NCBI GenBank assembly: GCA_010405405.1
Contig: MU004234.1
Span: 833,275 to 897,274, forward strand
Reading direction: 5' to 3'
Length of the DNA stretch: 64,000 nucleotides
Origin: Microthyrium microscopicum
Taxonomy: Eukaryota
Shown here: piece after piece, positions 1 to 50,428 of the stretch
Layout: each line of letters begins with the position of its first letter
How positions within the stretch are numbered: the first letter of the stretch is position 1
Made by a program: the position numbers and the translations under genes
Notes under the pieces: model-generated
Told to the model about the DNA's origin: nothing
The model's database searches: none
What the model saw: only the letters and a program-made list of their open reading frames with translations

Positions 1-496
1 GTTATTTTAATCTTAGTAATCTACTTTGTGATCGTATTAAGTTTTTAGTTAAAACGCGTCTTAAGATATGTTAGTAAAGGGGCTCTATTTATAGTTAAAG
101 CTAGGTAGAACACTAGTTATTTAACGTAGTTTTATGCTATAATAAAGAACGCGTAGTATTGTATAAAATTAGCTATTAGTTAATTAAGGAACGATCGTAT
201 TAAATCCCTCTCTTTAAATATAAGTCCTCTTAATAGTACTTTAATTTCTCTTTATACTCCTATAAGTAGTAGTTTTAGGTTATCTTTTCGTTTCTATATT
301 GCCTCGTTTTTAATATAGGTAGCCTTCGTAATAATAATAACTATCTATTATGAATCTTTATCTATCTCTATAGCGCTAGCTATTACTTACGTCTAGTTAA
401 AAGTTACACTATTGTAATAGTCTTAATAAGATGAATCTAATGATAATGGTTTTATAGAATAATTCTAAGAAATTAATCTTTTAGTATGATGATGCT
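1..496. repeat. Unclassified RIP-mutated AT-rich repeat fragment
   Basis: TpA-rich and CpA/TpG-depleted. It does not align with the Gypsy copy at 14438-23826, whose homology to this block starts only near position 497. Confidence 0.5.
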
Positions 497-618
497 TTAA
501 TACTTTTAAGCTAATAGAAGTAAATTTCCTCTTATACTTTTAATATTATTAAATATAAGTAACTTTATATATTCTTCCTACTTAAAACTTACTATTTATA
601 CTTCCTAAGGCTCTTAAA

Positions 619-8100: not shown

Positions 8101-9274
8101 ATAATATAATTTACTATCTTTTAGTACTAAGTATATTAAATATCTTTTATAAGTTTAAGGCTATAATTTTATTTAATTTACTTATTAGTAGTAAAGTAAA
8201 ATAATACTTCTTAAAAAGAAATAGGCTTATTTATAAACTACTAATTTTTATTATTATTATATTAAAAAGTTTAGTTATAAGTTTAAGAAATATAGTTAGG
8301 TCCTTTAAAAGTATAGTTTTAAGCTTAAAAAAGAGTTTATAGTTTAGTAAGAGAATAATTAATAATTTAGAGATTAACTTAATATATATTAGTAGAATAG
8401 TTTAAAGCTTAAGGCCTTAATTACTAAATATTAGTAACCTAAGTTATAAAGTTAAGATTAAGATTTAGTATATTAGGAAAATTATCTAGTAATATAAAAG
8501 TAAGTTACTTATTTTAAAGACTTAGATTAATAACTTAAGCTTAGTATTATACTTACTAAGTATCTTATCTTATAGCTTAGGCTATAATATTATTATACTA
8601 GTTATTTATTTTAGTAAAAGAAAGTAATAGTTTTAATAAAAAGTATAATTTTAGTAAAATAAAAAAAAAGTCTTAAGATTTAGAAGTTTTTATACTAAAG
8701 TTAATTAAATAGAATTTAAAGTTAAGAAATTATTTTAAAGTAGATTTTTATACTTTCTTAGTATAGATAAGATCTTAATCTAATTTCCTAAAATAACTTA
8801 AAGCTAAGAGTTTATATTATTACTTATTAGCTTTAATCTATATAGTAAAGTTTCTATAATATTATCCTAAGGGATTTTCTAAGAAAAAGTTCCTATATTT
8901 TATCTAATAGTTATATAATTAATATAATAAAGATTAATAAGAATAAGAAAAGTATTATTATAAGAGAAATAATTTTTATAATATATTTAATAATCTTTAA
9001 AGTAGTAGTTTAAATTAAAGATAATTTAAGATATTTTTAAAATATATTATAATAGAGAATATTATTATATATAATATTCTAAGAATTGTTTCTTAATATA
9101 TAGTTACTAAGTATTAAACTATAATAAGGCTAGCTAATTAGGAAATAGTATTCTTAGAGTATATCTTACTAGATATTAATTCTAAGTAATTATTACTAAT
9201 ATAGTAAATCTAAGGATTCTTATAAGAGGTCTATTATCTAAAAGTCTTAATTAAATTAAATTATTACTACTAAA

Positions 9275-9426
9275 TATTATAAGAATATAAGAAATAAAGC
9301 GTAGTTAATTACTATAAGAGTCTAAGAGCCTAATATAGTTTTTAAGATACGCTAATTAAGGGATTATATCATCCTTAATTAAGTCCTATAATTATCTAAT
9401 CCCTTGGCATGTTCTTTATCACAATA
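9275..9426 (-). repeat. LTR (~152 bp) of Gypsy copy 1
   Basis: Near-identical, apart from mostly transition changes, to 14438-14588 and 23676-23826. Confidence 0.92.
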
Positions 9427-10086: not shown

Positions 10087-13000
10087 ATGTCTGAAGCTAT
10101 ATCCTCTCTCCAGAATCTCGCGATTACCTCACCACCCAAAGAAGCTTTTGTTGGAGCTTCTGGTGAGGTAAAGCCTCCGAGCGGCGTTTCTAGCCATGAA
10201 AAGGTCTTCAACGACACCGAAACTATTCAACCGACTGAGAGTATACTTGCTGATGGCACTATCTCGAAAGCATACAACGGCGTAGCTGCGGAGGTTGTTC
10301 CTGGAATAGTGCCCAATAACTCCCTTCCACCACCATGTGCTGCCGGAATGAAAGTCTACAAAGAAGCCCAAAAGGAGTTTGACCGAATACGAAACTCGCA
10401 TCGAACGCTAGCTCCAACGGGCTGTACTCCTGAGTTCTGTCAGTCTGGTCGCATGGTATCAACAAACGAGCCTCGTGTCGGTCGAAACCGTCCTCTTGCT
10501 GAAATACAGCAGGAAGCGGTTGATTTTCTGAGAGAATGTCGAGACCACGACGTGATCGAATCCGATGAGAATCTGGACAAGCGAATCAAGGAAGCACTTG
10601 TTCAGATCTCGAATACCGCAATAGTTGCAGCTGTGACAGACAAAGATGGTCATACATCAGAAGGTTTAGCTGGAGGAACTTGGTACCAGCTTCCAGAGGA
10701 GCTCGAGTATGGGCTGAGAGCATCATGGCGTAATGCTCGACGATGTATTATGCGATCAGAACATGGTTAGTCACTCCCTGATATCATTGTTCAATCTACA
10801 ACTCGACAGACTTCCCAACTAGAGCTAGATACAATGTGAGCATCTGCTAATCGTATGCAGAGCATCTCGCACTATGCGATCTGAGAAGAGTACAATCCAG
10901 CAGAGAAATGGCCCGCACCATTGCCAAAGGAATGCAAGAAGCCTTCAACCGAGGACATATTCTCCCTACAGTATTTGTCTTTCCACCGCGCCAGCCTGGC
11001 AAAAAGGGCCCTATGATATGGAACAATCAAATAATGGCTTTCGCTGGCTATAAACTTGATGATGGGTCTATACTGGGCGATCCTGCAAACGTTGACCTTA
11101 CTGAGGGCATGATTGAGTTTGGATGGAAACCTCCTATCAATAAAACTCGATGGGACTTTTTACCTTTGATAACGATGGCTGAGAATGATGAACCATACAT
11201 GATGGAGCTTCCCCAGGAACTGAGAAGAACGGTTTCGATCACTCACCCGCGGTACGAGAAGGAATTTCGGGAATTAGACCTTCGTTGGGTTCTAGCTCCA
11301 GCATTGAGCAGATTGGGATTCGACATCGGTGGTAATCAGTATACAGCATCGCCTTTCATTGGATGGTTTATGGATGCTGAGATTGGTATTCGAAATCTGG
11401 CAGACTCCTTTCGGTACAATGTGCTACCAGATGTCATCGATGCATTGAAGATGAGCCCCGAGCCCGAGACTGATTTCGATGATTTACCCGAATATATGCG
11501 CCTTGTCGCACTTGTAAGTCCAAATCATGGCTCTACAAGATATGTTACTAATTTATAATCAGTCTAGAGCACAAGCTGAGCTAAATTTTGCCGTCTACTA
11601 TTCGTACCTACATGACCACGTTCATATGATCGACACCCTTTCTGGGTCCATTGAATATCAGAACTATGATGAAGATCGAAACGACGAGATTGGATACAGA
11701 CTTCCGGCAGAGCCTTACTGGATCTCTCCACCACAAGGCTCAATAGTCCCAATATGGCACAAAGGTGGCCTTCCCAATTACCAACCGAAACCCATGGTCT
11801 GCAAACATCTTCAGGATCCAGTCAATGCCTGGCGCAGAGAAACGCCAGAGGAAAAGAGGAGAACAAAGAAAGGCTTGATCAAAACCATCACAGATGCCAA
11901 CGAAGCACGTCCAAGGCTAAGAATCTTCTCATGCAGCGCAGGAGTCAATGCTGGAAAAATGGCCCACAAATTGTATGAAACAATGCAAAGGCTAGTCCAT
12001 GAGGTTGATGATCCTTTCGATGTGGAAGTGGAAAGGCCTCTTAACCAACTTGACCTCGCTGAAGCTGGACCTGAAGATATCATTTTGATCATTGCAAGTA
12101 CTACAGGAAGAGGTGAGATTCCTCGTAACGCGAAGCGATTCGTCGAGCGCTGGTCATCTGCTGAGACGTTGTCTTCACCTCCTCGATTTTCTTGCTTTGC
12201 AAATGGTGATTCCACTTATGGAGACACTTATAATATCGCCGGCAAAACCATCCAACAACTCATGACCACACTAGGCTGTCGACCATTGCTGGGTCATTGT
12301 TTTGCTGGAGATACTGCCATTAACAATCCGGACTGGGAGTCATTCACACATTGGCTGGAAAATATAGATCATCTGATCCTTGGAAACCACCACAAAATCC
12401 AACTACCAACCAGCTTGACTGACATGGGGCACCAAACAACAACTATGGTTGAAATGCCCACTGCAACACTTGTCAAAAAGACTCAGCTTGATCCGAAGGG
12501 TATTGTTCATATCACTTTGGACGTTGGCGATAAGAAATATCAGGAAATGGATCACGTAAAGATATTGGCACCCAATCCCGATTACGAAGTGGAAAGAGCT
12601 TTAGCCGCACTAAAGTTGGCACCAGAAGAGAGGTTCACTTGGCATCATCAGGATGCGATAAACTTTCTGAGCAGATATGTTGATCTTGATCATTGCTTCA
12701 AAGAGTTGGACTGGTATCCAGGATTCAGTTGTCTTTCTGAGGAGAAGCAAACCGAGTTGAGAAATGCCAAAGCTCTAGCGGTTATCGAAGGACTGGAAAA
12801 CATCAATTACGACTCTGCACTTCTCGAGAAGATTTGCAAGGACATGGCCAGTATTGTACCCCGTCTGTATTCGGTAGCCTCATGCCCTGTCTACTCCAAC
12901 ACAGACGCGATTAAGGAAGAAGACAGCGGCAACGTAGTCGACATCATGGTCAAAGTCAATCCTTCTGGTCGCTTCAGCGAAGTATTCCTGCTGAATGCTA

Positions 13001-13659
13001 AAATCGGAGCTCAAATGAGATTTGGTCTTACCAGTCCGGACACCTGGCAATTGATTCAAGCTCAAAAGCCGAATGCACCTTTGATAGCAATTGCCACTGG
13101 CTCTGGCATTGGACCTGTTCGTGCTCTTCTTCAACGGCGAATGATTGATATCACTCGCACCACAGGAGGTACTGGTCGCCCACGAGGCAAAATGAGCTCA
13201 GTGACTGCTGAAGTCCCTACATCAATATACTCTGGCTCCCGAAGAGGCTCGGTCAGTAGCATTGGCTCCGGCTCGCGTCGTGGAATCAAGGATATCAATC
13301 ACCATGCCCATCTTGGGGTTGGCAGCACTCGTGGTTCTGTCAGTCTGTTTGCTGGTTTCAAGACTGAGGATTCAGATCTCATTCAGACCATCATCCGCCC
13401 AGCTTCGCACACTGGTATACTAGATATCGTCGAGCTTTGCCCGAGTAACTCTGAGATGGTCAGGATTCAGGATCATATCCTTCTTCAAAGCGTCAAGGAC
13501 AAGTTGGCAGAGAAGCTCCGCGATCCATCGTGCATCGTGTTTGTATGTGCCAATGAGTGGGCAGCAGAGGGCGCAGTTGTTAATTTGTCACTCATTGCCG
13601 GCGGTAATGTTAAAGACTTGTTAGCAGAGAGATATATCGAGGAAATATTCCGCGGGTAA
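10087..13659 (+). CDS. nos: Full-length nitric oxide synthase-like protein (NOS oxygenase + flavodoxin/FMN + FAD/NADPH reductase), ~1142 aa; exons 10087-10765, 10861-11513, 11563-13659
   Basis: Oxygenase motifs: Zn motif CTPEFC; heme-thiolate WRNARRCIMR; IWNNQ..AGY; GDPANV; PFIGWFMDAEIGIRN with the substrate Glu; WISPP. FMN motifs: STTGRGE and GDSTY. FAD motif: PRLYSVAS. NADPH motifs: ATGSGIGP, VFVC and RYIEEIF. Two GT-AG introns with branch sites join the ORFs in frame. Confidence 0.93.
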
Positions 13660-14399
13660 TGTATGGCAGTCTTGGTGTGTGTATTTAGTGTGGAGCAATA
13701 ATCTACGCGGCGGCTGCTCGGCCATTTTTATACTCATTGTCTATGAGCTCACTGTGGCGCATGTACCAAATAGTAGAAGCCGACAAACCATTCAAAAGCT
13801 CTTTCAGTAAAATCACTTGTAAGTCTCTCACCTGGTCCTCGTGTCTTTCAAGCACTTTATTTACCTCCTCATGGTATCAATTCTGCTCTGCAATCAGCGT
13901 CAACATGCCCAGGGTATATATGAGGTTCCCACAAACATTAAATCATTGTTCAACTTATCTTCAGCCTCAAGTCTACAGGATCTACAGATTAGCAGTAGGT
14001 GTGAGTAGTTTCACTGAAGATAGGCTGACAGCTTTAAGATATCCACTGGGGCACCCACAAAGCGTTCACATCAGCGTTGAGACGTTTTCAAACTAGATGC
14101 ATACCTCATCTTAGCCACGAGAATTGGTGGAGGGCTCACGTTTCTGTGTTAGCTCCCCGTATGACATCGCTGTTTATACAGACTGGCAGCAGGTTTGATG
14201 GATGCTTGATTTTAAGTTTGGTTGAATCGATGGATATAGAGCCAAAAGTGGCTAAATCAACCAGTTTCTCCATCATCATGACATGTAATCTTTCAGAGTG
14301 CGCTCCTCTCTCCGCTCCAAGCTAAACGAACAATACGATGATGTAAATCCTGTGATTGTTGAAATGAAACCATCGCGATATCAAGAAATAGTGCCCAGC

Positions 14400-14436
14400 C
14401 ACGTGACAGCGCGTTACGCGTTCACCCTCGTCGCGT
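14400..14436 (+). promoter_or_regulatory. Cluster of MCB-like boxes (ACGCGT 14416-14421, GCGCGT 14409-14414, TCGCGT 14431-14436) plus CACGTG (14400-14405); probable displaced RPA3 promoter
   Basis: Motifs seen directly. With the retrotransposon removed at TSD GCGTC, they lie about 70-105 bp upstream of the RPA3 ATG. Confidence 0.6.
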
Positions 14437-14437
14437 C

Positions 14438-14588
14438 TGTTGCAAGAATATGAGAAATAAAGCGTGGTTGATTACTATGGGAGTCTAAGGGCCTAATATA
14501 GTTTTTAGGATACGCTAATTAGGAGATTATATTATCCCTAATTAGGTCCTATAATTATTAATCCCTTAGTATATTCTTTATTATAATA
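14438..14588 (-). repeat. 3' LTR of Gypsy copy 2
   Basis: 151 bp direct repeat with 23676-23826; starts with TGTTG immediately after the TSD. Confidence 0.93.
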
Positions 14589-15232
14589 TCTTCCCTTACT
14601 AGCGTAAACTCTCTTAAGATTATAAATCCTATAGCTATAGCTTTAATAAATAAGTAAAATAAAAAGAATATTATAATAACTAATAAGGAACCTTTACTTA
14701 AGAACTAAGTTTATTACTCTAGTTATACTAGATAGTAACCTCTAAGATATTATTCCTTAAGAACTCTTCCTAAGATCTTAGTTAAACTATTATAAATAGT
14801 ACTTAAGTATTTATAGCTTCTTAATCCTTTTAGGAAGGTTTGTCTATATAGGAGCTATTAGTAGTAATATATTAAGGAATTATAAAGAGTTTATATAGAT
14901 ATACTAAGGCTACTTAATCTAGTAAGGAATATATATAATCTATATATTAAGGCCTTAAAGGGTAAAATTTATAAAAAGTAATATATAAGTAGTAATAAAG
15001 AACTAGGTAGTAATTACTAGTTTAAGTAAATATAGAGATAAAAGCCTAATCCTATGTTTATAAAGCTTTATAATTTATTATCTTCTCTTCTTCTTCTTTA
15101 TTATACTTCTATAATATTTTTAAGCTAGTAGAAGTAGATTCTCTTTTATACTTTTAATATTATTAAATATAAGTAACTTTATATATTCTCCTTACTTAAA
15201 ACTTATTATTTATACTTCCTAGGGTTCTTAAA

Positions 15233-16726
15233 ATAGCTTCTCTAGGTACTCTAAAGAAGGATAGCTCTTAGAAGTCTAATAAGGAAAACTCTTCTTATTT
15301 AGGTACTTATTAGAAGATTATTAATACTCTAAAGAAGGATAAGTAGAAGTAGCTTTTACCTTATATAATCTATTTACGTAAGAAGGTTAAGGCTAAGGTT
15401 TTATTTCTTTTACTAAGTTATAAAGAAACTCCTAAGAAATTAGTTTATAACTTAATTAAGCGTTATTCTTATTCTATAAGTTTCTAGCTAATTAACTAAA
15501 TCCTAGAAGCTAATAAGAAGAAGGAAGATCTCTTTAGTAATACTTTTAATAATGTCTCTTATTCTTACTATAAGTTTCTAGTACCTTTTATAATGCTAAG
15601 AATATCTTATTAAATAATTCCTATTAATAATACTCTTACTTAAGGATTAATATATATAATAGGAAGTCTAGACTTATTAGAAAGTAATTATAAAGCTAAG
15701 TATAGAACTTCTATACCCTTTAACTTATTATAAGTATATAACTTCTATATTAAAACTTTTATAATAGTTTTAACTTATAAGTATAAGGCTACTAAAAAGG
15801 AGTTAGTAAACTTAGTAAAGTACTAAGAGTTTATAAAGTAAAAAGTAAAAGGTTATAAAGATTAACTAGCCTTTGCTAATAAGAGCCTAAAAGATACTTA
15901 TAAGTATATTAAAATTACTAAAGCTATATATAATAAACGTAAGTAGGAGTTAAAGTAAATAAGACTTTAAAAACATAAACATAAAATAAGCTTAATAATA
16001 ATTCTAAAAAAGCTATTTACTATATATAGTTATATAAATATAGTAGAACTAACTACTAAGAAGAGTATAAATTATTAAGAAAAGTAAGTTAAGTTCCTAG
16101 ACTCTAATTAGTATTCTACCTTTAAGAACGTTAAACTCTTAAGAGAGAAAGTAACTTAGGAATTACTCTTCTAGCTCTTAAAATATTACTAGAAGAATAA
16201 TAGTATTCTAATAAAGATTATTAATATCCTAATACTTATATCTTAGTAAGAAATCTATTAGTATTTAAGTACTTTACTCTTAACTAGAAATATCCTATCG
16301 TTATCTTCTTATTTAAAGACTTCTATAATATATATAACTATAAGAGTAAAGTAAGAAAAGGCTTATATACGTTACTAGGACTTATTACGAGTTTATACTT
16401 ATAATAGGTACGTTATTAGTATACGTAAAGAGAATAAGGCTTCTTTCCTAAATAGCGCCTATATTAATTATATATTTAATAGTAAACCTTAAACTTATTT
16501 ATTCTATAAGGACTACGTCTTACTATAGAGTTAGAAGAAAGGTCTAAATTCTACTATTATTTAGTTGTCTACTTCTCTTAGTATTTCTAAGTTACTAATT
16601 AATAAAAAGTACTTTAGAATAGCTAAAATTACTATAGGATTAGTAGCCTAGGCAAAGCTCTTAAAGAATAAGAAAAAGAAGTAGGCATAGGCCTTAAAGA
16701 GATAGGACTCTATAGAATTATAGTAA
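15233..16726 (+). pseudogene. RIP-degraded ~497-codon antisense ORF inside Gypsy copy 2 (unknown, coiled-coil-like protein)
   Basis: One frame opens at AAA-ATA-GCT (a RIP-mutated ATG in a fungal Kozak context). It had fewer stops than the other two frames in the stretch counted, and all stops are TAA/TAG. De-RIP translation is protein-like and Glu/Lys/Gln-rich. Confidence 0.55.
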
Positions 16727-17129
16727 AATATATAGTAGTAGTTCTTTAATATTCCTATATTTTCTAGTCTTATCTTATTAATTTATTAAAGGATAGACTT
16801 TAGTAATAGTCCTAAGGATTACTAAAAAAATCTAAAAATAACTTATTATATTTAAATATCCTTAGTAATAGTCTTAAAGATTACTAGGGAGATCTAAGAA
16901 TTTAGCTTATTTATTATAGCTTATAATAATTTACTTAAATTAATAATAAAATAAAAGTAATTTCTTATAAATAGTTTTTTAAATAAATATAATTAGGAAA
17001 GGTTATAAAAGAGATAATAAAAGATTAATTTTTCTTTTTTTTCTTATAGGTATCTTACCTATATCTATACGTAAGATAATTTCTTATCTAGGAGTAGCCT
17101 TCTACTATCTTTATCTTAATCTTAAATAT

Positions 17130-20100
17130 TATAGGCTAGTACTAGGACGTATAGAACTACTAGGCATTATAATTAGCCTAAATATATTAGTATCCTATAA
17201 GAATCCTTTAGTTATATCTATCTCTTATAGTAGACTAAGTTTAAAGTAATCTATAAAAAGAACTTCTACTTTTATAATATCTAGTAATAAAGGATTAATA
17301 CCCTAATAGTCTTCTCTAAGATTAGATACCTATTTATATAGATCTATTACCTTTAGTATAGGCATATAGGCAATTAGGGTAGTAATCTTATTATAGCTTC
17401 TTAGCCTTAATAATTTATTTCCTTACTCTTATTATTCTAGTAATATAAAGATTAATTCTTATTTTACTATAGCTAGGAGGATTTCCTTCCTTACTAAGCT
17501 TTAATTTAGGAAGGTAAAAATATTATTATTCTTCTTCTTTACTAAATCTTATAATATTATAGAATATTCTACCTTCTATATAATTTACTCTATCTACTCT
17601 AGATTACTTTATACTAAAGCTAAAATTAAGCTAGAAGAAATATATTCTAACGCTATAGGAGTCTCTAAATTATTACTTAGGTTATAAATAGTTACTATAA
17701 AGCGTTTCTTTTCTTATTTATAAATACCTACTTTAGCTTCTTAAACTTTTCTTATAAGGTTAAGAGAAATAGTAGATAGACCTAAGTAATATCTCCTAGT
17801 ACTAGACCTCTTAATATTAATTAACTCTACTAAAAGGTTTCTTAATTTATTAAGCTAGTCTTTCTTAGTTATAGTAAATATATCTATCTTATTTCTACGC
17901 TCTTTATTTAGAACGCCTTTAAAATTATCCTTACTTAGTTACTTATACTTAGGATATAGCTAGTTTTAGTAATAGTATTTATTTTCTTTCTACGTATATA
18001 CCTATATAAGGCAATTCTTATAGATAAGGTTTCTAAGCACTCTTTTATTAAGTATTTTAAGAGTGTATATTCTTAAAGGGTAGGCCTTTAAGACTTTATA
18101 AAGGCTAAACTATACTACTTAGAACTTAGTTTTATTTAAGTTTTTAAGGAGCATATAAGAACCTATAAAGAACTTAATAATAGAGTCCTTTTTTAAAATT
18201 ATATTACTATTAATAAGGTTTAAAGCTATAGCTTATTTTAATAAGGCATTATAATAGACTTATCTAATAGTTCTAACCTTCTCTAGATAATCTTTAGCAA
18301 TTATATAGATAAGAGGTATAGTATTAATTAATTTAGCCTATTTATCTTTCTTTACCTAGCTTATTTTAAAGTCCTTAAGATCTCTCCTATAGATAAAGAA
18401 GAAGAGAGATATTCCTAACGTAGTATAAGCTTATACTCTAGTAGTATAAACTACTTAATCTAGGTATAAATCCTAACTAGCTATAAGTTTTCTTTCTAGG
18501 AACTTAGTTAGGAATATACCTAGTAAGCTATTAAATCTCTTAACCTTCCTATTAGACTAAAAGTTATATAGAGCTATTAAGTAGTGCTTAGTCTTTATCT
18601 ATTATAATAAGGATAAAATTACGTCTAAGATAAACTAAGGTCTATTATCTAAGGTTAATAATTAAGGAGAACTATATTTTAAGACAATTTTTCTATAGAT
18701 AAATTCTATAACTATAAGAGTAGTAGTATTTAGTACTACTTCTATAATAGGCTATCCTATAGCATAGTTAATTATATAGATAATATACTAGTTTTTAAGA
18801 AAACTCTATAGAAATTTATTAATTAGGTTAATTTCCTAAGCCTTAAATAGCTATAAGTTTTATACTTAATAGTAGGACCTACGCTTAGGCCTACTTTAAT
18901 TTATCTATTAAACTTAATATATAGGACAAAACTAGGTAAATTCTTAGAAGTTATCCTCTATCCTTAGCTATTAACCTTCTAGTTTAAGGATATTAGTAAG
19001 GCTTATATATAATAAGTACCTATACTAATTATATACTTTCTTAATAAAGTCTTAGTAGTAGAAGGAGTAAATATAGAGTAAACTAGTAAGTATCTTAGCT
19101 TTAGTAGAATTTTTCTCTAAGAATAGATATCTATATTTCTTCTTAATATCTTTATTAAGGTTAATCTAAAAATAATTAAGAATGCTTTTTTAAAGCCTCT
19201 TCTATACGCTAATAAGGATAATATAATCTTTCTTTTTTAACGCTTCTTATAAGCCCTATATATAGAAAGCTTCTTATTCTTTTTACTCTTATAAGGGTTC
19301 TAATAGAGTAGCTTATACCTTAGAAGATAAGTTATTATTATTATCTTTAGGCTCTATTTCTTAAATAATATTAATCTATCTTTCTTAAAAGTTTAAGTAG
19401 TAATTAAGAGTATTAGGAACTATTACTTAGAAACCCTTATAATACGTAAAGATAAGATTAAATTCTTAGAACTCTTTAATCTATTAAGTAATATATTAAG
19501 TATTATTCTTAATTATATTTATATACTATAAGCTATTATAATTTATAATTACTTTAGTAGTCTTNNNNNNNNNNNNNNNNNNNNNNNNNNNNNNNNNNNN
19601 NNNNNNNNNNNNNNNNNNNNNNNNNNNNNNNNNNNNNNNNNNNNNNNNNNNNNNNNNNNNNNNNNNNNNNNNNNNNNNNNNNNNNNNNNNNNNNNNNNNN
19701 NNNNNNNNNNNNNNNNNNNNNNNNNNNNNNNNNNNNNNNNNNNNNNNNNNNNNNNNNNNNNNNNNNNNNNNNNNNNNNNNNNNNNNNNNNNNNNNNNNNN
19801 NNNNNNNNNNNNNNNNNNNNNNNNNNNNNNNNNNNNNNNNNNNNNNNNNNNNNNNNNNNNNNNNNNNNNNNNNNNNNNNNNNNNNNNNNNNNNNNNNNNN
19901 NNNNNNNNNNNNNNNNNNNNNNNNNNNNNNNNNNNNNNNNNNNNNNNNNNNNNNNNNNNNNNNNNNNNNNNNNNNNNNNNNNNNNNNNNNNNNNNNNNNN
20001 NNNNNNNNNNNNNNNNNNNNNNNNNNNNNNNNNNNNNNNNNNNNNNNNNNNNNNNNNNNNNNNNNNNNNNNNNNNNNNNNNNNNNNNNNNNNNNNNNNNN

Positions 20101-21300
20101 NNNNNNNNNNNNNNNNNNNNNNNNNNNNNNNNNNNNNNNTTCTTAATATCTTTTTCTACTATATAGACTTACTAATAGCTTAATAAGAGATTAAGCTTAG
20201 AGAAGAATCTTACTCTACTAATAGTATTAAAATATTTATTAATTTATAGTAAAGAATAAGTATCCTTACGCGTAATTATATTAAGTAGATAGTAGTTAAT
20301 ATATATTCTCTATTTTTCTTCTAGCTTTAGTATAAATAAGATAAGGAAACCCTAAGGACTTCCTAAGACTCTAATAAGTCCTTTAATAAGTAGTTCTTAA
20401 ATTTACTTTTCCTACTCTTCTAGTTATAGGCTAGATATCTAATAATAAGCCTAATTATAAGGAGAAGCGTTCTTTATAAGGATTTTATAATTAAACTTAG
20501 AATATAGAGAAAGTTTAGGAAAGGTATAACAAAAAGACTTATAGTAATTATTTAAAAGTTTCTATATACCTTTATTTTCTAGAGTAAGTTTATTAATATT
20601 AAGGTTATTAGTTATTAAGAGGATATTAGGCTATTTCTATATTCTATAAATTAGCTAAAGAATGCTCTTAACTTTATCTTCTACTCTTTTTACTCTATTT
20701 TAAAGTACTTAAAAGATTATATAGAGAGAGCTAGCTATAAACTACTCTATTTATTCTAAGTAGCTTTCCTTATTCTAAAGAGGCTCTACCTAGCGTCTTA
20801 TAGTAAGCTTATAAGTATATAAGCTCCTTAAGTATTACTCTATAAGCTTAATTTACTTTATTATCTAATTAATTTATAGATTATATAACTAGAACTATAA
20901 AAGTCTAAAAATAATATTAAGATTAGAAATATTTAGGATATAAGCCTTAAAGTAGCTATAAAAGGTCCTAATATAATAAGATAAGTAAATCCTAAAGAAA
21001 GTTATAACTATATAGCTATCTATAAGAGTAACTTCTTTCTTTAGGATAAGTATTATAGAAGCTTTAAGTTTTTTAATAATCTTTTAACTAATATAAATAA
21101 AGTTAGCTCCTAAGTTTAGGAAAGCTATAATCTTAATAAAATAATTTTTATAATATAAGCAAATAGGTAGATATAAAAGAGTATTATTATATTTACTTAT
21201 ATAGTTAAAGAAAGCTTATTAATTATTATATAAATAAGTAAGGTATTCTAATTTTAAGCTAGAAGATTTCTATTTATCTCTTAATAATAGTAGTTTTTTA
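17130..21300 (-). pseudogene. RIP-degraded pol (RT-RH-INT plus C-terminal extension) of Gypsy copy 2; boundaries approximate
   Basis: RT, RNase H and integrase motifs are recognisable after reversing C>T/G>A changes. Confidence 0.8.
19565..20139. other. Assembly gap (575 N)
   Basis: Run of N. Confidence 1.
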
Positions 21301-23675
21301 AACCTTATTATCGCTAGTTAGGCTTTTTATAATTTATAGTATAGTAACTAAGTTTACTATAATTTTAGTACTTAAGTTTAGAGTTATCTATAGAAGCTTT
21401 CCTACCTTTAGAGTCCTTTTTATAAGAGAGCTATAACTTCTTATTAGAGTTAAATTTCTTAGAGCGTTAAGTATTACGTTATTCTTTAAAATAGTAACTA
21501 TAGCTATTTATAGCATTAAGCTATCTTAAATTTTTATTATTTAACTTAAGCTTATTATTAGTATAGCTTTTACTATTAACTTCTTTAAGATATTCCTTAG
21601 AATTAGTATTTAGAATAAGCTCTTTATCTTCTTTAAAACTAGAGAAGATTTTATTAAGCTACTCTAGCTTATAAGCGTTATAAATATTACGCATATTTTT
21701 ATAGGAGTCTATATTATATTTAATAATTTCTTATTTAAAGGCTAAAATATTAACTATAAGGTTAAGAATAGTACTATGCCTATACTTAGCTTTAAGAATA
21801 ACCTATTCTTTAAGGCCTCCTTAGATTTAGATATCTATTTTATAATTAGTAGGTATAGGATTTATTTAAGTCTATAAGATATAAAGATAATAGATAAATT
21901 CCTTAGTAAATAAAACCTATAATATATAATCTTACTAAATACTAACTTTAAGTATATCTTTTTTAATGCTAAATATAGGTTAAAAGTAGATAAAGAAGTA
22001 AAATAAACTTTTAAGTATCTTAAACTCTTCTATAGCCTATTACTAGGCTAAGTTAGCCTATAGGAGACATTACTTAATAAGAAGATATTCTTTAACCTTA
22101 GTAATTTTCTACTACTTAGGTAAAGCAGAATCTAATAGGAGAATATTCTTACTAGCCTTAAAAGTATAAAGGAGGCTCTTAGCCTAAGCATTATACTTAC
22201 TTAGTTTCCTAGAGAATAAACTATTAAGAAGTATCTTAAACTTAGTTAAATATTATCTCTATTCCTAAGAAACGTCCCTTATTATCTTAATAAGTTTTTA
22301 AGGACTAAAAGTTTAGAAAAGCAATTTAATAGTCTTATTTAACTCTTTACTTAGCTTTTCTATAAGGTCTAGGTAAGTAATACCTATTTATAAAGTTTTC
22401 TAAGTTAAAGCTTAAGTTTAGGCATAAGCCTTAATTTTATTTACCTAGTAATCTTAGGTATATAGAGTAAACTTACTTATATTAAGGCAAGAAGTTAATT
22501 TAGTAATATAATTTATTATCTTTTGCTACTAAGTATATTAGACGTCCTTTATAAGTTTAGAGCTATAATCTTATTTACTTTGTTTATTAGTAGTAGAGTA
22601 AAATAACACTTCCTAAAGAAGAATAGGCCTATTTATAAACTACTAATTTCTATTATTATTATATTAGAAAGTTTAGTTATAAGCCTAAGAAACGTAGTTA
22701 GGTCTCTTAAGAGTATAGTTTTAAGCCTAAAAGAAAGTTTATAGTTTAGCAAGAGAATAGTTAATAGTTTAGAGATTAACTTAATACGTACTAGTAGAAT
22801 AGTTTAAGACTTAGAGCCCTAATTACTAAACGTTAGTAACCTAAGTTATAAGGTTAAGACTAGAATTTAGTATATTAAAAAGGTTATTTAGTAATATAAG
22901 AGTAAGTTACTTATCCTAAGGACTTAAGTTAGTAACCTAGGCTTAGTATTATACCTACTAAGTATCTTATTCTATAGCTTAGGCTATAATATTATTATGC
23001 TAGTTATTTATTTTAGTAAAGAAGAGTAATAGTTTTAATAAAGGATATAATCTTAGTAAAGTAGGGAAAGAGTCTTAAGGTCTAAAAGTTTTTATACTAA
23101 AGTTAGTTAAATAGAATCTAGAGTTAAGAGATTATTCTAAGGTAGATTTTTATACTTCCTTAGTATAGATAAGATCTTAATCTAATTTCTTAAGATAACC
23201 TAAGGCTAAGAGTTTACGTCGTTACTTATTAGCTTTAATCTATATAGTAAAGTTCTTATAACGTTATTCTAAGGGATTTTCTAAGGAGAAGTTTCTATAT
23301 TTTGTCTAATAGCTACGTAATTAACGTAATAAAAATTAGTAAGGATAAAGAGGGTATTATTATAGAAGAGATAATTCTTATAATATATTTAATAATCCTT
23401 AAAGTAGTAGTTTAAATTAAAGATAATTTAAGATATTTTTAGGATATATTATAGTAAGAAATATTATTATATATAAATCTTAAGAATTATTTCCTAATAT
23501 ATAGTTACTAAGCATTAGGCTATAATAAGGCTAGCTAATTAGAGAATAGTATTCTTAGAGTATATCTTACTAGATATTAATCCTAAGTAATTATTAATAA
23601 TAAAGTAAATCTAGAAATTTCTATAAGAGGTCTATTATCTAAAGGTCTTAATTAAATTAAATTATTACTACTAGA

Positions 23676-23826
23676 TATTATAAGAATATAAGAAATAAAG
23701 CGTGGTTAATTACTATAAGAGTCTAAGGGCCTAATATAGTTTTTAGGATATGCTGATTAGGGGATTATGTTATCCCTAATTAGGTCCTACGATTACTAAT
23801 CCCTTGGCATGTTCTTCATCACAACA
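23676..23826 (-). repeat. 5' LTR of Gypsy copy 2
   Basis: 151 bp direct repeat; ends in CAACA followed by TSD GCGTC. Confidence 0.93.
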
Positions 23827-23897
23827 GCGTCAAATCAACTCATTCTCAACGAAATACATCTAGCATTCTCATAATTTACTTCTAAACAGTCAAGATC

Positions 23898-24322
23898 ATG
23901 GATTCCGTCCCACAAACTCCAAGAATCAACGCCCGCTATCTAGAGGCTTTCAAAGACCACACGGTGCGTGTAGTGGGCAAAGTCACCGACCTTAGAGGCA
24001 ATACCGCGACAATCGAAGCTGATGGTCCTATCGTTGTCCAACTGAACCGCGTATGAACTCCTCTGGAAATTGAGATGGGACTGCTCTGACATATATGACA
24101 GGAATCGCATCTTCAGCTGAACAGCGCTGTTGAGGTGGTTGGGAAAGTCAATGCTGATTTGTCGATCAAGATTATGCTATTCACGGACTTTGGCAAGAAC
24201 TTCGGTATATCAATCCAAGTTTGATTGACGTACCGAGCTAATACGCGATAGACTATGCTGCAATGGATGCTGTGGTAGATGCAACACACCGGTACAAAGA
24301 AATCTTCTACAGCGATACCTAG
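23898..24322 (+). CDS. RFA3: Replication protein A 14 kDa subunit (RPA3/Rfa3/Ssb3); exons 23898-24050, 24102-24204, 24252-24322
   Basis: Not in the ORF track. Spliced product MDSVPQTPRINARYLEAFKDHTVRVVGKV...VEVVGKVNADLSIK...DFGKNFDY...YKEIF is typical of the RPA3 OB fold. Canonical GT-AG introns. Confidence 0.9.
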
Positions 24323-41787: not shown

Positions 41788-43858
41788 CGCAGCGAAGCAC
41801 GCCCTGCGGATAAAGAACTCTCAATGAAAGAAGACCCTCCATCCTGAAAATCCTAGAAGAACCCATCCTTTAAAGATGACCTTTGCCGCGGAGTTCTTGG
41901 TATTCAATAGGGGTGCAGCTGTCGTGAGAAAGAATCAGACGAGTTGCCCAAATTGAGCCAAACAGTAGCCCGTACGCCAGCCAAAGGCGCAACACACTGC
42001 AAGGTACGCGCTCGGGGGCTTGCCAAGCCAATGAACCAGGCCTTTTGGACCATATATCAGCCTGATGAATTTATGCGCGCCGATTTTGGGGTGGAATAAT
42101 GATGATACCTTTTTTCAGCTGGAGCAGTACAATAGGTTGGGTTGCTCGATGCCACTGATCCCCAGAGAAGTGTGTGGTATTTGCGGAGGGCCATATTATA
42201 TCCGTCAAAAGCTCAAATTACCTTTTTATATTGTTATTAATCAGGCTTCGAATCTATATGATCGAGATTAAAACTGGAAAGTATCTTTCGTGGTGTCAGT
42301 TTTGCCCCGAGAGCGTTGCTTTTGTAGAGGTTAAGAGTGGGCCAATGTTAATCCGCCACCCTAAAAACACTATCCCGCCACCCTAAAATCACTATCCCGC
42401 CTCCATAGTAATCTAGATCAGCTACTAGTCCTAAATAGGAAATAAATATTTTTTTTTTGCTACTTATTAGGATTAGCGCTATTAAGTATACTTACTTATC
42501 TTAATATTGCTAAAATTCTAACTTTATTTCTTATTTTTAGCAAAATTCTACTACTACTCTACTAAAATCTACTAATACTTCCTTTAACTATAACTTTATT
42601 AAATAGTAATTAAATAATATATAGATAATAAGAATTATTCCTTTTATAAAGTAGTTTATAAAGTAATATAAAATTATAGTAAAATTTATAGTTATACTAT
42701 AATTAAAAAGTAATTTAAAACTTAAAAAGATGCTAATTTTTCTTACGTCTACTATCTTAAATATAATTAATACTTAATCTATCTTTCTATCTTTCTTAGA
42801 ATATAAGAACTTACTATTAAAGAAGTAAACTATCTATTTTAATATATTATTAAATAGCGTATAAATATTAATAATAGCTAAATATAAAATATTAAAGTTA
42901 AATCTAATTATTATAACTATCTTTTATCTTAAGATTCTATAAAATACCCTTAATATTATTAAGATATATTAAAATATATTAATAATAGTAGAAAGATTAA
43001 TAATTATATAGAATAGAACTAGAAATTAAAGTAGATATATTCTATACTTATTAAGAATAAGACTATTATAATAATTTTATAGAATATTTATAATTAGTAA
43101 ATATATACTTAAATTAAATATTTAAGTAATAAAATACTTATAGAGGTATTAATTTAAGACCTTAAAGTTAATAAAGAACTTATTTATAAATATTTTATAT
43201 CTTTAGAGCTTTATTTATAATATATTTTCTTTACTATACTTTTATAGTTAAAGCTTTATTAGACTTATTTAGATATCTTATTATTAAATATTACTTATAG
43301 TATTAATAAATATAAAATACTACTTCTTTACTTTATTAGTATTAATTTAGTAAATAAATACTTCTTTTTAAAGTTTTATTTTATAATAAGTAAATTAAAA
43401 GAGGATTATATCTAAGCCTTTAAAGTATTTAATTATTCTATATACTATAGTAGTATTAAATTACTAAATATTATACTTACTAACTATTATTAAGCCTTTA
43501 AGAATATATTAAATTAGGTTCTATTAGTATCTTAACTTATTTACTTATTTTACTTTAATAAAGCTATTTATTACTAATTTAAACTAGCCTTTAAAACTAA
43601 GGAATATATAAAAGGTAGTCTTAGTTATCTTAAAGTACTAATAGAAAAGGATTCTATATAAAATATTTAATAAAAGGTTAGTTCTTTAGCTCTTTATTAA
43701 AGATAGTTTACTAATAAATTACTAAGTAGTTTATTCTTTAATTAAAGAAAAGTATAACGTTACCTAGCTTAATTTTAACGCTAAATATTTTACCTCTTAT
43801 TCTATATTAGTTTCTTATCTAAATAATACTTAAATACTATTTAAAAAGTAATTTATTA

Positions 43859-45060
43859 TTATTAAATCTTGTTTATTGTCTTTTAGCTACGCTAATAGGC
43901 TATATAGACGCTACTCTTAATAAGCGAGTAAAAACCTTTATCTAATTAGCTAATCTACCTAAATCTAGCTAAGTATAACTCGCTCTAGGCCTAAGGCCTA
44001 GTCTAGCTTTAGCTAATCTCTATATATTTAGTAAACTAAGGCGCTAACTATATAAAGGAAAACCCTACTATTATATTCTATAGGCTAATCTGTGCTAAGG
44101 CTAATAATACTATGCTACCCTATTAGCTTCCTAAGCTATAAAAGTATTAGTAGGTTGGGAGAGCTAAATTTTGGGTAGTATCTAACTGTAGTACCTCTCT
44201 AGGCTAGTATTTATTATAGGTTATTATTCTTCTATTTAGTCTACTGCTTTAAGTTCTTAAAGTTGCCAATATTATTGTCCCCTAAGGGGCTAAGATTCCT
44301 TCCTTATTATTATATTAGATCTCTTTATTCGTACTGTAATACTAAGTCTAAGGTAGCGTTAATAGTTTACTAGGAGCTATTTATCTACGCTATGCTTTAC
44401 TTTTAAGCTAAGATCTAGGGTCCTTTAGACTAGTATATTTTAGGTTACTTTCCCTAAGTCTGCTAACTTTTTCTATAGCGCTGTATTGCTAACTTATAGG
44501 TACTATACTTACTAAGTTGTAGTGTCCCTAAATTCTATAAGTTTCTACTATGTTATTTAGTCCGATCCTTACTTTACGTAGCTAGGATTTTAGTTTTACT
44601 AAGCTAGGGCCAATCGTCTAATCTAATTGCTAAGAGCTGTAAAAGAATTAGCTTTAGTATACTAATTTTACTATACTTTAGCGATGTTGTAGCTTATTTT
44701 TATATAGCTTTACGTACCGTATAGCTATAGCTAGTTTCTAATTATATAATTTTAACGCTAGTCCGTTGTTAGTTAGTAAGGCTTTGATAAGGATGATCTT
44801 ATAGCTATATATAGCGGTTACGTAATACAAAAATTTGTACCTTTCGCGACGTGTTAAAAAGAGCTATAGCTCGTCCTCTATACCTACTAAAAAAGGAAGG
44901 ATAACCTTCCCTAAAAAGAAGTAAACGTGGCTTTAAAAGTGAGTAACGATTACCTTTTTAGGGTAGTAGGAGAGACGGGAATCGAACCTGTGCTTTACGG
45001 ATTCTTAAATAGGTAGGGCCTGCCGCAAGATTACAAGTACTACCACTATACTACTCCCCC
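43859..45060 (-). mobile_element. tRNA-derived SINE-like non-LTR insertion (~1.2 kb)
   Basis: Absent from monomer B; 17 bp TSD TAAAAAGTAATTTATTA (43842-43858, 45061-45077); tRNA-like 5' head; A-rich 3' end. Confidence 0.75.
44967..45060 (-). pseudogene. tRNA-like head of the SINE (Pol III A and B boxes; anticodon not assignable)
   Basis: GGGGGAG/CTCTCCT acceptor stem; A box TAGTATAGTGG (45053-45043); B box GGTTCGATTCC (44988-44978); an extra ~20 nt in the anticodon-loop region. Confidence 0.75.
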
Positions 45061-48000
45061 TAAAAAGTAATTTATTAAAGCTTTTATAATAGAATTTAAG
45101 TATTTTAGTACTTTTATAACTTTACTATTAGAAGGACTCTATTTAAGCCTAAAATCTTAGCTAAAATCTTCTAAAATAGACCTCTATATAGTTATAAAGA
45201 ATATTAAACTTATAGTTAATACTTAATATACTAAATTAAAAAGTATTTTAGAATTAGACTCTATTTAAATCTCTTATAATATTAGTATATATATAATTTT
45301 TATTCTTTTTTAAGATTTATAATTTCTTATTTTAAATATAGCTTATATTATAATTAGAAAGTAATATTAAAGATATAGAAATAAAAATATTATATTAAAA
45401 TATTTTTGCTACTATACTAAGATATTTACTAAAATAAATAATATTATTTACTTTTATATAATATAAAAATATTTTATATTTAATAACTATTAGTAAATAA
45501 ATTTTATAAATATTAATCTATATTAATATTATAATTAATCTAAATTTAGTAATACTTCTTAGCTACTTTTAGGTTTATAATTTATACTTTCTTTATTAGA
45601 ATTAGTTCTTTCTATTCTACCTCTAAATATTATATATACTTTAAGTTATTTATATATAGAATAAGCTTTATCTTTAACTAATAGAATATAAAGCTACTAA
45701 GAAATTAAGTTATAGCTTTTTACTAATATTATTAATAGTTAAATCGTTACTAAAGCTATAGATTATAAGAATATTTTATAAGAAGTTACTAAAACTATAG
45801 TTATATAAGCTTATAAAGTTATTAATCTTATTAACTCTTTACTACCTTAAAAATATTAAAAATAAAATATTATTTCTTTATATAAGGCTTTTTTAGTAGA
45901 TTAATCTCTAACTCTCTTTTATATACTATTTATATATAAATAGAAGGAATATAATAATCTAGTAATAGAATTATAAATACTTTAAGCTAAGATAGTACTT
46001 ATATATAGAGTACGTAAAGAATATAAATAGAATAGAAAATATAAATCTTATAAAGGAATTATAATATCTCTAACTTATAAAGGCTATAATAGTAGAGAAA
46101 TAATTATATTAACTTTATAAACTTATAGTAGTAAAGAATAAGCTATTTATACTTTAAATAGTATTAATTTTAATTAAAATAGCTTTAAGATAAAGTAATT
46201 ACTATAAGTAGTAGATAGTAATAAAAGTTATACTTTAAGATTTATACTACTTAAGCGCTAATAATACTAATAGTACTAATAGTATAACTATACGCTAATA
46301 CTTATTACTTCTAAAAAATATATTTATTTCCTATTTAAGACTAGTAACTAATCTAGATTACTATAGAGGCAGAATAGTAATTTTAAAGTAGTAGGATAGT
46401 ATTTTTAGGGTAGTAAATTAATATTAGTCTTATTAGCTAATGTTAATTTACTACCTTAAAAATACTATCTTACTACTCTAAAATTACTATTTTACCTTTA
46501 TAGTAATCTAGATTAGCTACTAGTCCTAAATAGGAAATAAATATATTTTTTCTACTACTTATTAAGATTAATACTACTAAGTATACTTACTTATCTTAAT
46601 ATTACTAAAATCCTAACTTTATCTCTTATTTTTAGTAAAATTTTATTACTACTTTATTAAAATTTACTAATACTTTCTTTAACTATAACTCTATTAAATA
46701 GTAAATAAATAATATATAGATAATAAAGATTATTTCTTTTATAAAGTAGCTTATAAAGTAATATAAAATTATAGTAAAATTTATAGTTATACTATAGTTA
46801 AAAAGTAATCTAAAATTTAAAAAAATACTAATTTGTTTTATATTTATTATTTTAAATATAATTAATACTTAACCTACTTCTTTATCTTTTTTAGAATATA
46901 AGAACCTACTATTAAAGAAGTAGAATATTTATTTTAATATATTATTAAATAGTATATAGATATTAATAATAGCTAGATATAGAATATTAAAGTTAAATCT
47001 AATTATTATAACTATTTCTTATTTTAAGATTCTATAGGATACTCTTAATATTATTAAGACGTATTAAAATATATTAATAGTAGTAGAAAAATTAATAATT
47101 ATATAAAATAAAGCTAAGAATTAAAGTAAATATATTCTATACTTATTAAGAATAAGGCTATTATAATAATTTTATAAAATATTTATAATTAGTAAATATA
47201 TACTTAAATTAAATATTTAGGTAGTAAAATACTTATAGAAGTATTAATTTAAAACCTTAAAGTTAATAAAGAACTTATTTATAAATATCTTATATCTTTA
47301 GAGCTTTATTTATAATATATCTTTTTTATTATACTTTTATAGTTAAAGCTCTATTAAACTTATCTAGATATTATATTATTAAATACTATTTATAGTATTA
47401 ATAAATATAAAATACTACTTCTTTACTTTACTAGTATTAATTTAGTAAATAAATACTTTTCTATAAGGTTTTATTTTATAATAAGTAAATTAGAAAAAGA
47501 TTATATTTAAGCCTTTAAAATATTTAATTATTTTATATACTATAATAGTATTAAATTATTAAATATTATACTTACTAACTATTATTAAGCTTTTAAGAAT
47601 ACGTTAAATTAGATTCTATTAGTAGCTTAATTTATTTACTTATTTTATCTTAATAAAGCTATCTATTACTAGTTTAAACTAGCTTTTAAAACTAAGGAAT
47701 ATATAAAAGGTAGTCCTAATTATTTTAAAGTACTAGTAGAGAAGGATTCTATATAAGATATCTAGTAAAAGATTAGTTTTTTAGCTCTTTATTAAAGATA
47801 GTTTATTAATAAATTATTAAGTAATTTACTTTTTAACTAAGAAAGAGTATAATACTACTTAGCTTAATTTTAATATTAAATACTTTACTTTTTATTCTAT
47901 ATTAGTTTCTTATCTAAATAATACTTAAATACTATTTAAAGAGTAATTTACTAAAGCTTTTATAGTAGAATTTAAGTATTTTAGTACTTTTATAACTTTA

Positions 48001-48683
48001 TTATTAAAAAGACTCTATTAAGGCTTAAAATCTTAGCTAAAATCTTCTAAAATAGATCTCTATATAGTTATAAAGAATATTAAACTTATAGTTAATACTT
48101 AGTATACTAGATTAAAAAGTATTTTAGAATTAGACTTTATTTAAATTTCTTATAATACTAGTATATATATAATTTTTATTTTTTCTTAAAATTTATAGCT
48201 CTTTATCTTAAATATAGCTTATATTATAATTAAAGAGTAATATTAAAAATATAGAGATAAGAATATTATATTAGAATACTTTTACTACTATATTAAAATA
48301 TTTATTAAGATAAATAATATTATTTATTCTTATATAATATAAGAATATCTTATATTTAATAATTATTAGTAAATAGATTCTATAGATATTAATTTATATT
48401 AGTATTATAATTAATCTAAATCTAGTAATACTTCTTAGCTACCTTTAAGCTTATAATTTATACCTTCTTTACTAAAACTAGTCTCTTTTATTCTATCTCT
48501 AAATATTATATACGTTTTAGGTTATTTATATATAGAATAAGCTTTATTTTTAATTAGTAGAATATAAAGCTATTAGAAGATTAAGTTATAGCTCTTTGCT
48601 AGTATTATTAATAATTAAATTACTACTAAAGCTATAAATTATAAGAATATTTTATAAGAAGTTACTAAAACTATAGTTATATA

Positions 48684-49399
48684 TATCGTGAAAAAATTAT
48701 CATTGATTTAAGCTATCCGATAGCACTAATAATAGCTATAACTATTATACGTAGTAGGTCATCTAAGGAGTTAGAAATAACTTTAAAATAACTGTAATAA
48801 CCTACGATAACCTAAAGATTAATAAATTAGATAAAAGGATTTTACTAAAGTTCTTAAGTGTAATAACTAATTAACTAATCTAGCTATGCGCCTAAAGATC
48901 TTGCTATAGGCTAAAATATAGGGTTTAGTACCTTTGGTTTAATCTAGAAATAAAAANNNNNNNNNNNNNNNNNNNNNNNNNNNNNNNNNNNNNNNNNNNN
49001 NNNNNNNNNNNNNNNNNNNNNNNNNNNNNNNNNNNNNNNNNNNNNNNNNNNAACTTTTAAGATATAAAAATAATAAAAACATATCTAGATAGAGCTTAAC
49101 GAGCTCTAAATAGTAATATAAAAATTATACCTTAAAGTTGCCTATTCGGGTTACGATATCTCCAATAACTACGATAGATTTCAAATAACTACGATAGATT
49201 TTAAATAACTATGATAGATTTTTGATGTATTTAAAATAACTACGATGAGTTTAAAATAACTAGAATAACTAGAATTATTTAGTACTTTATCCGATGTACA
49301 TCTAATGCGCATCTAATGTCTTTAAAATAACTAAAATAACCGTTTTACCGTCGGATACGTAGTTTAATTTGCGATGCATAATAATTTTTTCACGATTAG
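48684..49399. mobile_element. Small TIR (MITE-like) element nested in MULE monomer B at a TA site
   Basis: Absent from monomer A; inverted repeat ATCGTGAAAAAATTAT (48685-48700 / 49381-49396); 20 bp tandem repeat x3 at 49161-49220; contains an N gap. Confidence 0.75.
48957..49051. other. Assembly gap (95 N)
   Basis: Run of N. Confidence 1.
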
Positions 49400-50428
49400 T
49401 AAGCCTATAAAGTTATTAATTTTACTAACTTTTTATTACCTTAAAAATATTAAAAATAGGATATTATTTTCTTATATAAGGCTCTTTTAATAAATTAATC
49501 TTTAACTCTTTTTTATATACTATTTATATATAAATAAAAGGAATGTAATAATCTAGTAATAGAATTATAAGTACTTTAAGCTAAGATAGTATTTATATAT
49601 AGAGTATATAGAGAATATAAATAAGGTAGAGAATATAGATCTTATAAAGGAACTATAATACCTTTAACTTATAAAAGCTATAGTAATAAAAAAATAACTA
49701 TATTAGCTTTATAGAGTTATAATAGTAGAGAATAAGCTATTTACGTTTTAAATAGTATTAATTTTAATTAAAATAACTTTAAAATAAAGTAATTACTATA
49801 AGTAGTAGATAGTAATAAAAGTTATGCTTTAAGATCTATACTACTTAAGTACTAGTAGTGCTAATAATGCTAACGATATAACTACACGTTAGCACTTATT
49901 ACTTCTAGAAAATATATTTATTTCCTATTTAAGACTAGCAGCTAATCTAGATTACTATGGAGGCGGGATAGTGATTTTAGGGTAGCGGGATAGTGTTTTT
50001 GGGGTGGCGGATTAACATTGGCCTTAAGAGTGACTAGAGTAAAAGAGGCGATAATAACTTGCCTATACTACTGTAATATCATTTTGTTGAACAATCTTTT
50101 CACCTCACTGATTCATTTTATTTTACTAGTTCTACAAGGATTAAGAGACGAACCTCGATGATCAGTTCTTCTCCTGAGCTGGACTCAGTAACATACATCA
50201 CCACTATCTGAGTCTCTGAGATATGCCGTATGGGGGAGAAGAAGGATTATGATGCATATGCACAAGGCTAAGAAAAGCAATCATAGCCCATACAAAATAC
50301 GGCCTGTAGCTTTGTCAGCCACTTCAAGTTGCGTCCAGAGATACTCTAGGGTCACTCTCGTGTTTGCATAATCCAGCCTGAGCCCATCCTGTACATAGGA
50401 GTCAGGACCGAGAATTTCCAGTTTCAGA

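Follow-up and report, generated by a model that had tools for sequence, protein, structure and literature searches.

The stretch analysed here, referred to below as the window, comprises 64,000 nucleotides of contig MU004234.1 of Microthyrium microscopicum (GenBank assembly GCA_010405405.1, positions 833,275–897,274, forward strand), and its subject is a 1202-bp insert that a first-pass annotation, made from the sequence alone, had described as a tRNA-headed retroposon resembling a short interspersed nuclear element (SINE). The insert lies within the first of two relics of Mutator-like elements (MULEs), both degraded by repeat-induced point mutation (RIP). Copy 1 (42340–46432), which carries the insert, was delimited by its similarity to copy 2 and by its terminal inverted repeats (TIRs), and copy 2 (46436–50023) by its similarity to copy 1 and by a Pfam MULE relic. 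The two copies are 87–90% identical (89.5–90% over segments of 1518, 748 and 627 nt), with TIRs of about 115 nt. The outer TIRs of the pair are identical at 110 of 120 positions and have kept their G+C, and the inner ones are heavily RIP-mutated. The MULE domain PF10551 was matched in copy 2 at about 47373–47615 with 28.1 bits (cutoff 27.6), stop codons being translated as X, and a 9-bp target-site duplication (TSD), TTAAGAGTG at 42331–42339 and 50024–50032, encloses the two copies together. The host therefore combines long TIRs, a TSD of the 9–10-bp class and a MULE transposase relic. The two relics stand head to tail only about 3–5 nt apart (46433–46435), as a tandem dimer with a single 9-bp TSD.

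The insert occupies positions 43859–45060, between two direct copies of the 17-mer TAAAAAGTAATTTATTA that are identical at 17 of 17 positions. The element reads on the minus strand, and the copy at 45061–45077 is accordingly on its 5′ side and that at 43842–43858 on its 3′ side. When the flanks were compared with the window by BLAST, MULE copy 2 matched the left flank as far as 47953 and the right flank from 47937 onward, an overlap of exactly 17 bp, which identifies copy 2 as the empty site. This single site at 47937–47953, TAAAGAGTAATTTACTA, matches the repeat at 15 of 17 positions, both mismatches being transitions. The perfect repeat and the preserved empty site together point to an insertion with target-site duplication and not to a chance repeat, in agreement with the first-pass annotation. 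The true duplication is 11–17 bp long, since the 3′ tail of the element and the first six nucleotides of the repeat share one motif. Its perfection says little about age, because the repeat keeps one G and no C to mutate. In the host, 24-nt inverted repeats (43825–43848 and 45081–45104, 88% complementary) are centred on the target site; this arrangement may be a chance feature of AT-rich DNA or may reflect a structural preference of the nicking enzyme. Microhomology between tail and target was considered and is not claimed, only four of six positions matching the un-RIPped (CAA)n form of the tail.

At its 5′ end the insert carries a tRNA-like head (44967–45060, minus strand), matched by the Rfam tRNA model RF00005 with 38.1 bits (gathering threshold 29; model positions 1–71; E-value 1.9e-4 for the whole window and 4.4e-6 for 1.5 kb). 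This was the sole above-threshold Rfam match in the 64 kb, and it starts on the first base after the repeat, in line with the earlier proposal that the element begins at base 1 of a tRNA-like sequence. Sense positions 8–18 (45043–45053), TAGTATAGTGG, fit what we take to be the A box consensus at 10 of 11 positions, and sense positions 73–83 (44978–44988), GGTTCGATTCC, fit the presumed B box consensus at 11 of 11, so that a tRNA-derived head with A and B boxes, as in SINEs, is present at the level of the sequence. The anticodon arm (44997–45034) measures 38 nt against 15 in the tRNA model, that is, 23 extra. ARAGORN detected the head only when introns were allowed and not in its default mode, giving a weak Ala(TGC)-like call whose drawing requires two stem mismatches, a 5-nt intron and a variable loop of about 20 nt. 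By our own reading of the alignment, the first stem pair of the Rfam match implies a different anticodon loop, of 30 nt and without U33.

Contigs of four public runs were aligned to positions 43300–45600 (2301 bp) at 80% likeness; the runs are designated here by X and a number. Run X1 gave 199 contigs, of which 29 were at least 99% identical to the window, 41 fell at 95–99%, 60 at 90–95% and 69 below 90%; the corresponding numbers for the 273 contigs of X3 were 45, 53, 81 and 94. Summed depth in X1 ranged from 1010 to 6782 over the 16 insert bins and from 36 to 400 over the 14 flank bins, and in X3 from 3467 to 40158 and from 426 to 3031, respectively. The whole length of the insert was tiled by pieces from different copies, and at position 44056, which is A in the window, 16 contigs of X1 and 15 of X3 had G. 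Among the rows listed, unlike sequence began at the tRNA end from 45062 (two contigs each of X1 and X3) or 45061 (one of X6), and at the 3′ end from 43856 (two of X3), 43865 and 43867 (one each of X6). Similarity thus ended at the element boundaries in all nine contigs of these six rows, and the sequence beyond, on either side, was unrelated. The first-pass annotation had held that its reading would fall if the element were single-copy or if other copies extended past the tRNA 5′ end; many diverged copies were found, and in these nine contigs none ran on. A discrete unit with fixed ends is therefore present in many diverged copies, the one described here standing at a site still empty in the paralogous MULE. 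Run X5 yielded identical pieces of the locus at a depth of 2–4 and was not used as support.

The head shares in this repetition. The head bin in X1 was about nine times as deep as the adjacent flank bin (2045 against 222.6), and at least four contigs from three runs spanned the head with 35–53 differences, which indicates that the head itself is multi-copy and diverged. Other copies aligned across it with few gaps (none in two records, two in one record), and the extra length of the anticodon arm is consequently regarded as a feature of the family. These data largely refute the suggestion that the insert is a one-off chimeric retrocopy, in which a tRNA was joined to the 3′ part of a long interspersed nuclear element (LINE) or to a read-through transcript and was never amplified, only the body being repeated. 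That suggestion could draw on the 3′ end bin of X1, which is about three times as deep as the head bin (6782 against 2045), and is very improbable; the higher depth toward the 3′ end is compatible with 5′-truncated copies. A loose end at 43919 in three X3 contigs might have pointed to another family with no more than the final 60 nt in common; this is not claimed, the letters being partly window-like with an indel. Within the window, blastn at word size 9 gave only the self-match of the element, and no 26-mer of it recurred elsewhere after collapsing to purines and pyrimidines. Metagenome scans with two RIP-degenerate patterns, one from the 3′ region and one from the junction of head and body, returned no match each.

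The insert is itself RIP-mutated, less so than its host. Its G+C is 0.338, compared with 0.15–0.18 in the host; its (CpA+TpG)/(ApC+GpT) ratio is 0.31, compared with 0.02–0.11 in the host and 1.34 in genic DNA; and its TpA/ApT ratio is 2.14, compared with 1.48–1.49 and 0.65. At 82 of the 86 places where the window and X6 differ, the window has A or T and X6 has G or C, and 359 of the 404 differences from X1 are transitions. Both copies of the TSD hold mutated letters that set MULE copy 1 apart from copy 2, which indicates that the host had largely been RIP-mutated before the insertion and that the insert was RIP-mutated afterwards. The RIP indices and these letters uphold the earlier statement that the insert is the younger of the two, and give a relative time line of MULE duplication and RIP, then retroposon insertion, then further RIP. 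The later RIP of the insert presupposes that, at a sexual cycle, the nucleus contained one or more further copies.

The same observations bear on the view that the 1202 bp are ancestral to the MULE and that recombination of one 17-bp repeat with the other removed them from copy 2. Within the window, an exact loss of this kind would look the same as an insertion, and this reading is nevertheless extremely improbable: the 1.2 kb occur elsewhere beside unrelated flanks, which contradicts it, and RIP has affected the surrounding MULE much more heavily than the insert. Contigs of X1 and X3 moreover join across the insert, with three joints that skip 1219–1656 nt, from which it follows that other MULE copies also lack it. 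One of these, in a single X3 contig (side 26), joins 43841 to 45061 and skips exactly 1219 nt, equal to 1202 + 17.

Behind the head follows a body unrelated to tRNA (43865–44966, minus strand), repeated over its whole length in the contigs. No Pfam domain was found in the insert in six frames with X at stops, and no coding frame was present, every frame containing 33–58 stops per 400 codons and the longest open stretch reaching 56 amino acids. The insert contains no long terminal repeat (LTR) or TIR and no internal direct repeat above 30 nt, and the body no tandem repeat array of note. The element is thus non-coding as seen in this RIP-mutated copy, as expected of the non-autonomous element proposed at first. 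In the sense direction the 3′ end reads GATT followed by TAATAA, the latter being a (TAA)2 tail (43859–43864, minus strand) that runs into the target repeat, itself beginning with TAATAA. In the less mutated X6 copy (loose end at 43865) the same GATT is directly followed by (CAA)3CA. RIP turns CpA into TpA and hence CAA into TAA, so that the end described at first as A-rich is indeed so in this copy and is better defined as a RIP-converted (CAA)n trinucleotide tail, now (TAA)n. A simple-repeat tail is accordingly present in both forms.

This anatomy also bears on a derivation from Helenus, a terminal-repeat retrotransposon in miniature (TRIM). According to the excerpted text of PMC10886601, the LTRs of Helenus carry tRNA-derived sequences, are found in fungi and often stand solo, so that a solo LTR would resemble the present element as a tRNA-like sequence heading a repeated non-coding unit. 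The same excerpts describe an LTR architecture with primer-binding site and polypurine tract, and in fungi a TSD of 5 bp and an occurrence reported only from basidiomycetes, namely Pucciniales and a few Agaricomycetes (PMC10886601). None of these features was seen here: the TSD measures 11–17 bp, a trinucleotide repeat forms the tail of the unit, and neither a second tRNA-like match nor a terminal direct repeat was found within the unit. An origin as a Helenus solo LTR is highly improbable.

The element has a fixed 5′ end at position 1 of the tRNA-like head, a body without coding capacity, a tail of simple repeats and a long TSD, and it occurs in many diverged copies; together these features make up the anatomy of a LINE-dependent retroposon. 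The insert is probably one RIP-inactivated copy of a moderately repeated, non-autonomous, SINE-like non-LTR retroposon of about 1.2 kb, placed by target-primed reverse transcription. As judged from its letters, the element would consist of a tRNA-derived head with an enlarged anticodon arm, a non-coding body of about 1.1 kb and a short (CAA)n tail. In the mechanism envisaged, the head would supply an internal RNA polymerase III (Pol III) promoter for the transcription of new copies, and a resident LINE, in this class of fungi most likely a Tad1-like one, would provide the endonuclease that nicks the target and the reverse transcriptase that copies into it an RNA beginning at tRNA position 1. 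The LINE enzyme would recognise the 3′ end and the repeat tail, reverse transcription being primed by the target.

A number of observations weigh against this interpretation. No canonical anticodon loop could be placed in the mutated head, for which reason neither the isotype nor an intron was assigned, and the head of this copy folds no better than shuffled sequences (z 0.29). As regards the contigs, X1–X4 represent one sample, which is possibly the source of the window itself; contig depth is not copy number; the TSDs of the dispersed copies are not visible; and the loose ends considered are 24 of 169 loose-end rows, so that copies running past the ends may exist. On the side of the LINE, no relic of such an element was found in the blocks scanned with Pfam with X at stops (1–9300, 14300–19564, 20140–24100 and 42001–50200), and no second sequence sharing the 3′ end of the element was found in the window. 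With regard to transcription, T4, T5, T6, T5 and T5 runs occur at sense positions 123–232, 28–137 nt behind the tRNA-like part, and by our reading of the strings, undoing only the CpA-type RIP leaves T5 at two of them. Runs of T5–T6 are expected Pol III stops, and full-length Pol III transcripts are therefore doubtful unless active copies differ. Finally, the length of 1202 bp is twice the usual SINE range of 100–600 bp given in the excerpts of PMC5063351, the element having rightly been called long for a SINE.

The T5–T6 runs, 50–137 nt behind the head, and the 1.2-kb length speak for a reading in which the same retroposon family is not driven by Pol III. Its RNA might then be made by RNA polymerase II (Pol II), either reading through into the element or starting at a promoter upstream of it, and RNase P might cleave at the head and so fix the 5′ end exactly at position 1; or the head might be the scar of a template switch from LINE RNA to a pre-tRNA. 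The single head-covering contig of X6, a run only guessed to be RNA, no run containing the stretch being recorded as such, has 961 nt of unrelated upstream sequence, a further point for this reading; the run may also be DNA, and some of the T runs may be products of RIP. Motifs resembling the A box (10/11) and the B box (11/11), by the consensuses assumed above, have moreover outlasted RIP. RNase Z, as part of tRNA processing, should sever the head from the body, which counts against a head used in this way. On balance a family without Pol III transcription is unlikely. Also unlikely is a young, oversized "proto-SINE", in which a LINE reverse transcriptase, having copied some 1.1 kb from the 3′ region of its own RNA, would have changed over to an unspliced, intron-bearing pre-tRNA as template and the chimera would then have been amplified, or, in a variant, in which the head would be an RNase P signal on Pol II transcripts and not a promoter. 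If this were true, the enlarged anticodon arm would be a retained tRNA intron and the family would record the birth of a SINE before its shrinkage.

MULE copy 2 has its own nested insert (48684–49400, about 717 bp), which is richer in G+C, is not present in copy 1 and has terminal inverted repeats of about 14 nt (CGTGAAAAAATTAT); it is probably a small TIR element, and includes an assembly gap (N run 48957–49051). The AT-rich blocks 1–9300 and 14300–24000 (N gap 19565–20139) seem to contain copies, ruined by RIP, of a single retrotransposon of the LTR type: their frame translations show, by eye, long similar stretches, and with X at stops block 1–9300 matched Pfam RT_RNaseH_2 with 44 bits at about 4935–5214 (minus strand) as well as RT_RNaseH of the LTR type. 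Pfam domains of transposable elements were not found in blocks 14300–19564 and 20140–24100, and block 42001–50200 had those of MULE only. In a RIP-tolerant Smith–Waterman search, the 3′ 150 nt of the retroposon scored 52–56.5 at about 4966 (minus strand), against shuffle maxima of 46.5–50.5; this match was taken as chance because the alignment is gappy and lies inside the LTR-type RNase H relic. The scores of the 3′ 60 nt and of the head in the window were within the null. A long open frame at 11518–13659 matched nitric-oxide-synthase oxygenase, flavodoxin and FAD-binding domains (Pfam E-values 2e-8 to 2e-6, FAD_binding_1 being below cutoff), and is predicted to be a nitric-oxide-synthase-like gene with a reductase fusion in a fungus.

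Retroposons headed by a tRNA are seldom annotated in filamentous fungi, having no coding capacity and being eroded by RIP, and an element of 1.2 kb lies outside the size filters of SINE finders. For M. microscopicum, no title among the literature matches listed concerned its repeats, and for another Dothideomycete the excerpts of PMC4522978 name Tad1-like LINEs as the non-LTR group and give a repeat table without a SINE row. A well-delimited copy with an empty paralogous site can serve as an annotation seed for the family in a little-studied Dothideomycete lineage. No new mechanism is demonstrated, and the element is possibly a young SINE.

The remark of the first-pass annotation that the class is rarely documented in fungi was overstated, the excerpts of PMC5063351 listing some ten families of SINEs or SINE-like elements from fungi, a part of them with lengths of 700–900 bp. 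These include Mg-SINE (472 bp), mgsr1 (800 bp), Foxy, Egr1 (700 bp), EGH24 (900 bp), nrs1 (500 bp), SINE2-1_BG and AfuSINE2/3 (PMC5063351). Like the present element, mgsr1, Egr1, EGH24, Mg-SINE, Foxy and nrs1 are dispersed non-coding retroposons of filamentous ascomycetes, with tens to about 160 copies according to the same excerpts; compared by description only, they differ in size, the sizes listed (none for Foxy) being at most 900 bp, although some exceed the classical SINE size (PMC5063351). Another member of this list, AfuSINE2-1a of Aspergillus fumigatus, is described there as a tRNA-related SINE with an ACT-repeat end and a 3′ part like that of a Tad1-clade LINE (PMC5063351). Both elements begin with a part that derives from a tRNA and contains A and B boxes, continue as non-coding sequence to a 3′ end of trinucleotide repeats, and are framed by an intact TSD. 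As far as the excerpts go, AfuSINE2 elements are 140–493 bp long, with TSDs of 4–14 bp, few copies and heads that fail to form a cloverleaf, whereas the element studied here, again compared by description only, has 1202 bp, a TSD of 11–17 bp and a tail of (CAA)n instead of (ACT)n (PMC5063351). The element is best classed as a tRNA-headed, SINE-like retroposon of the non-LTR type. It is unusually long for this class, which is uncommon in fungi and not new, and by analogy AfuSINE2-1a would be its closest documented counterpart.

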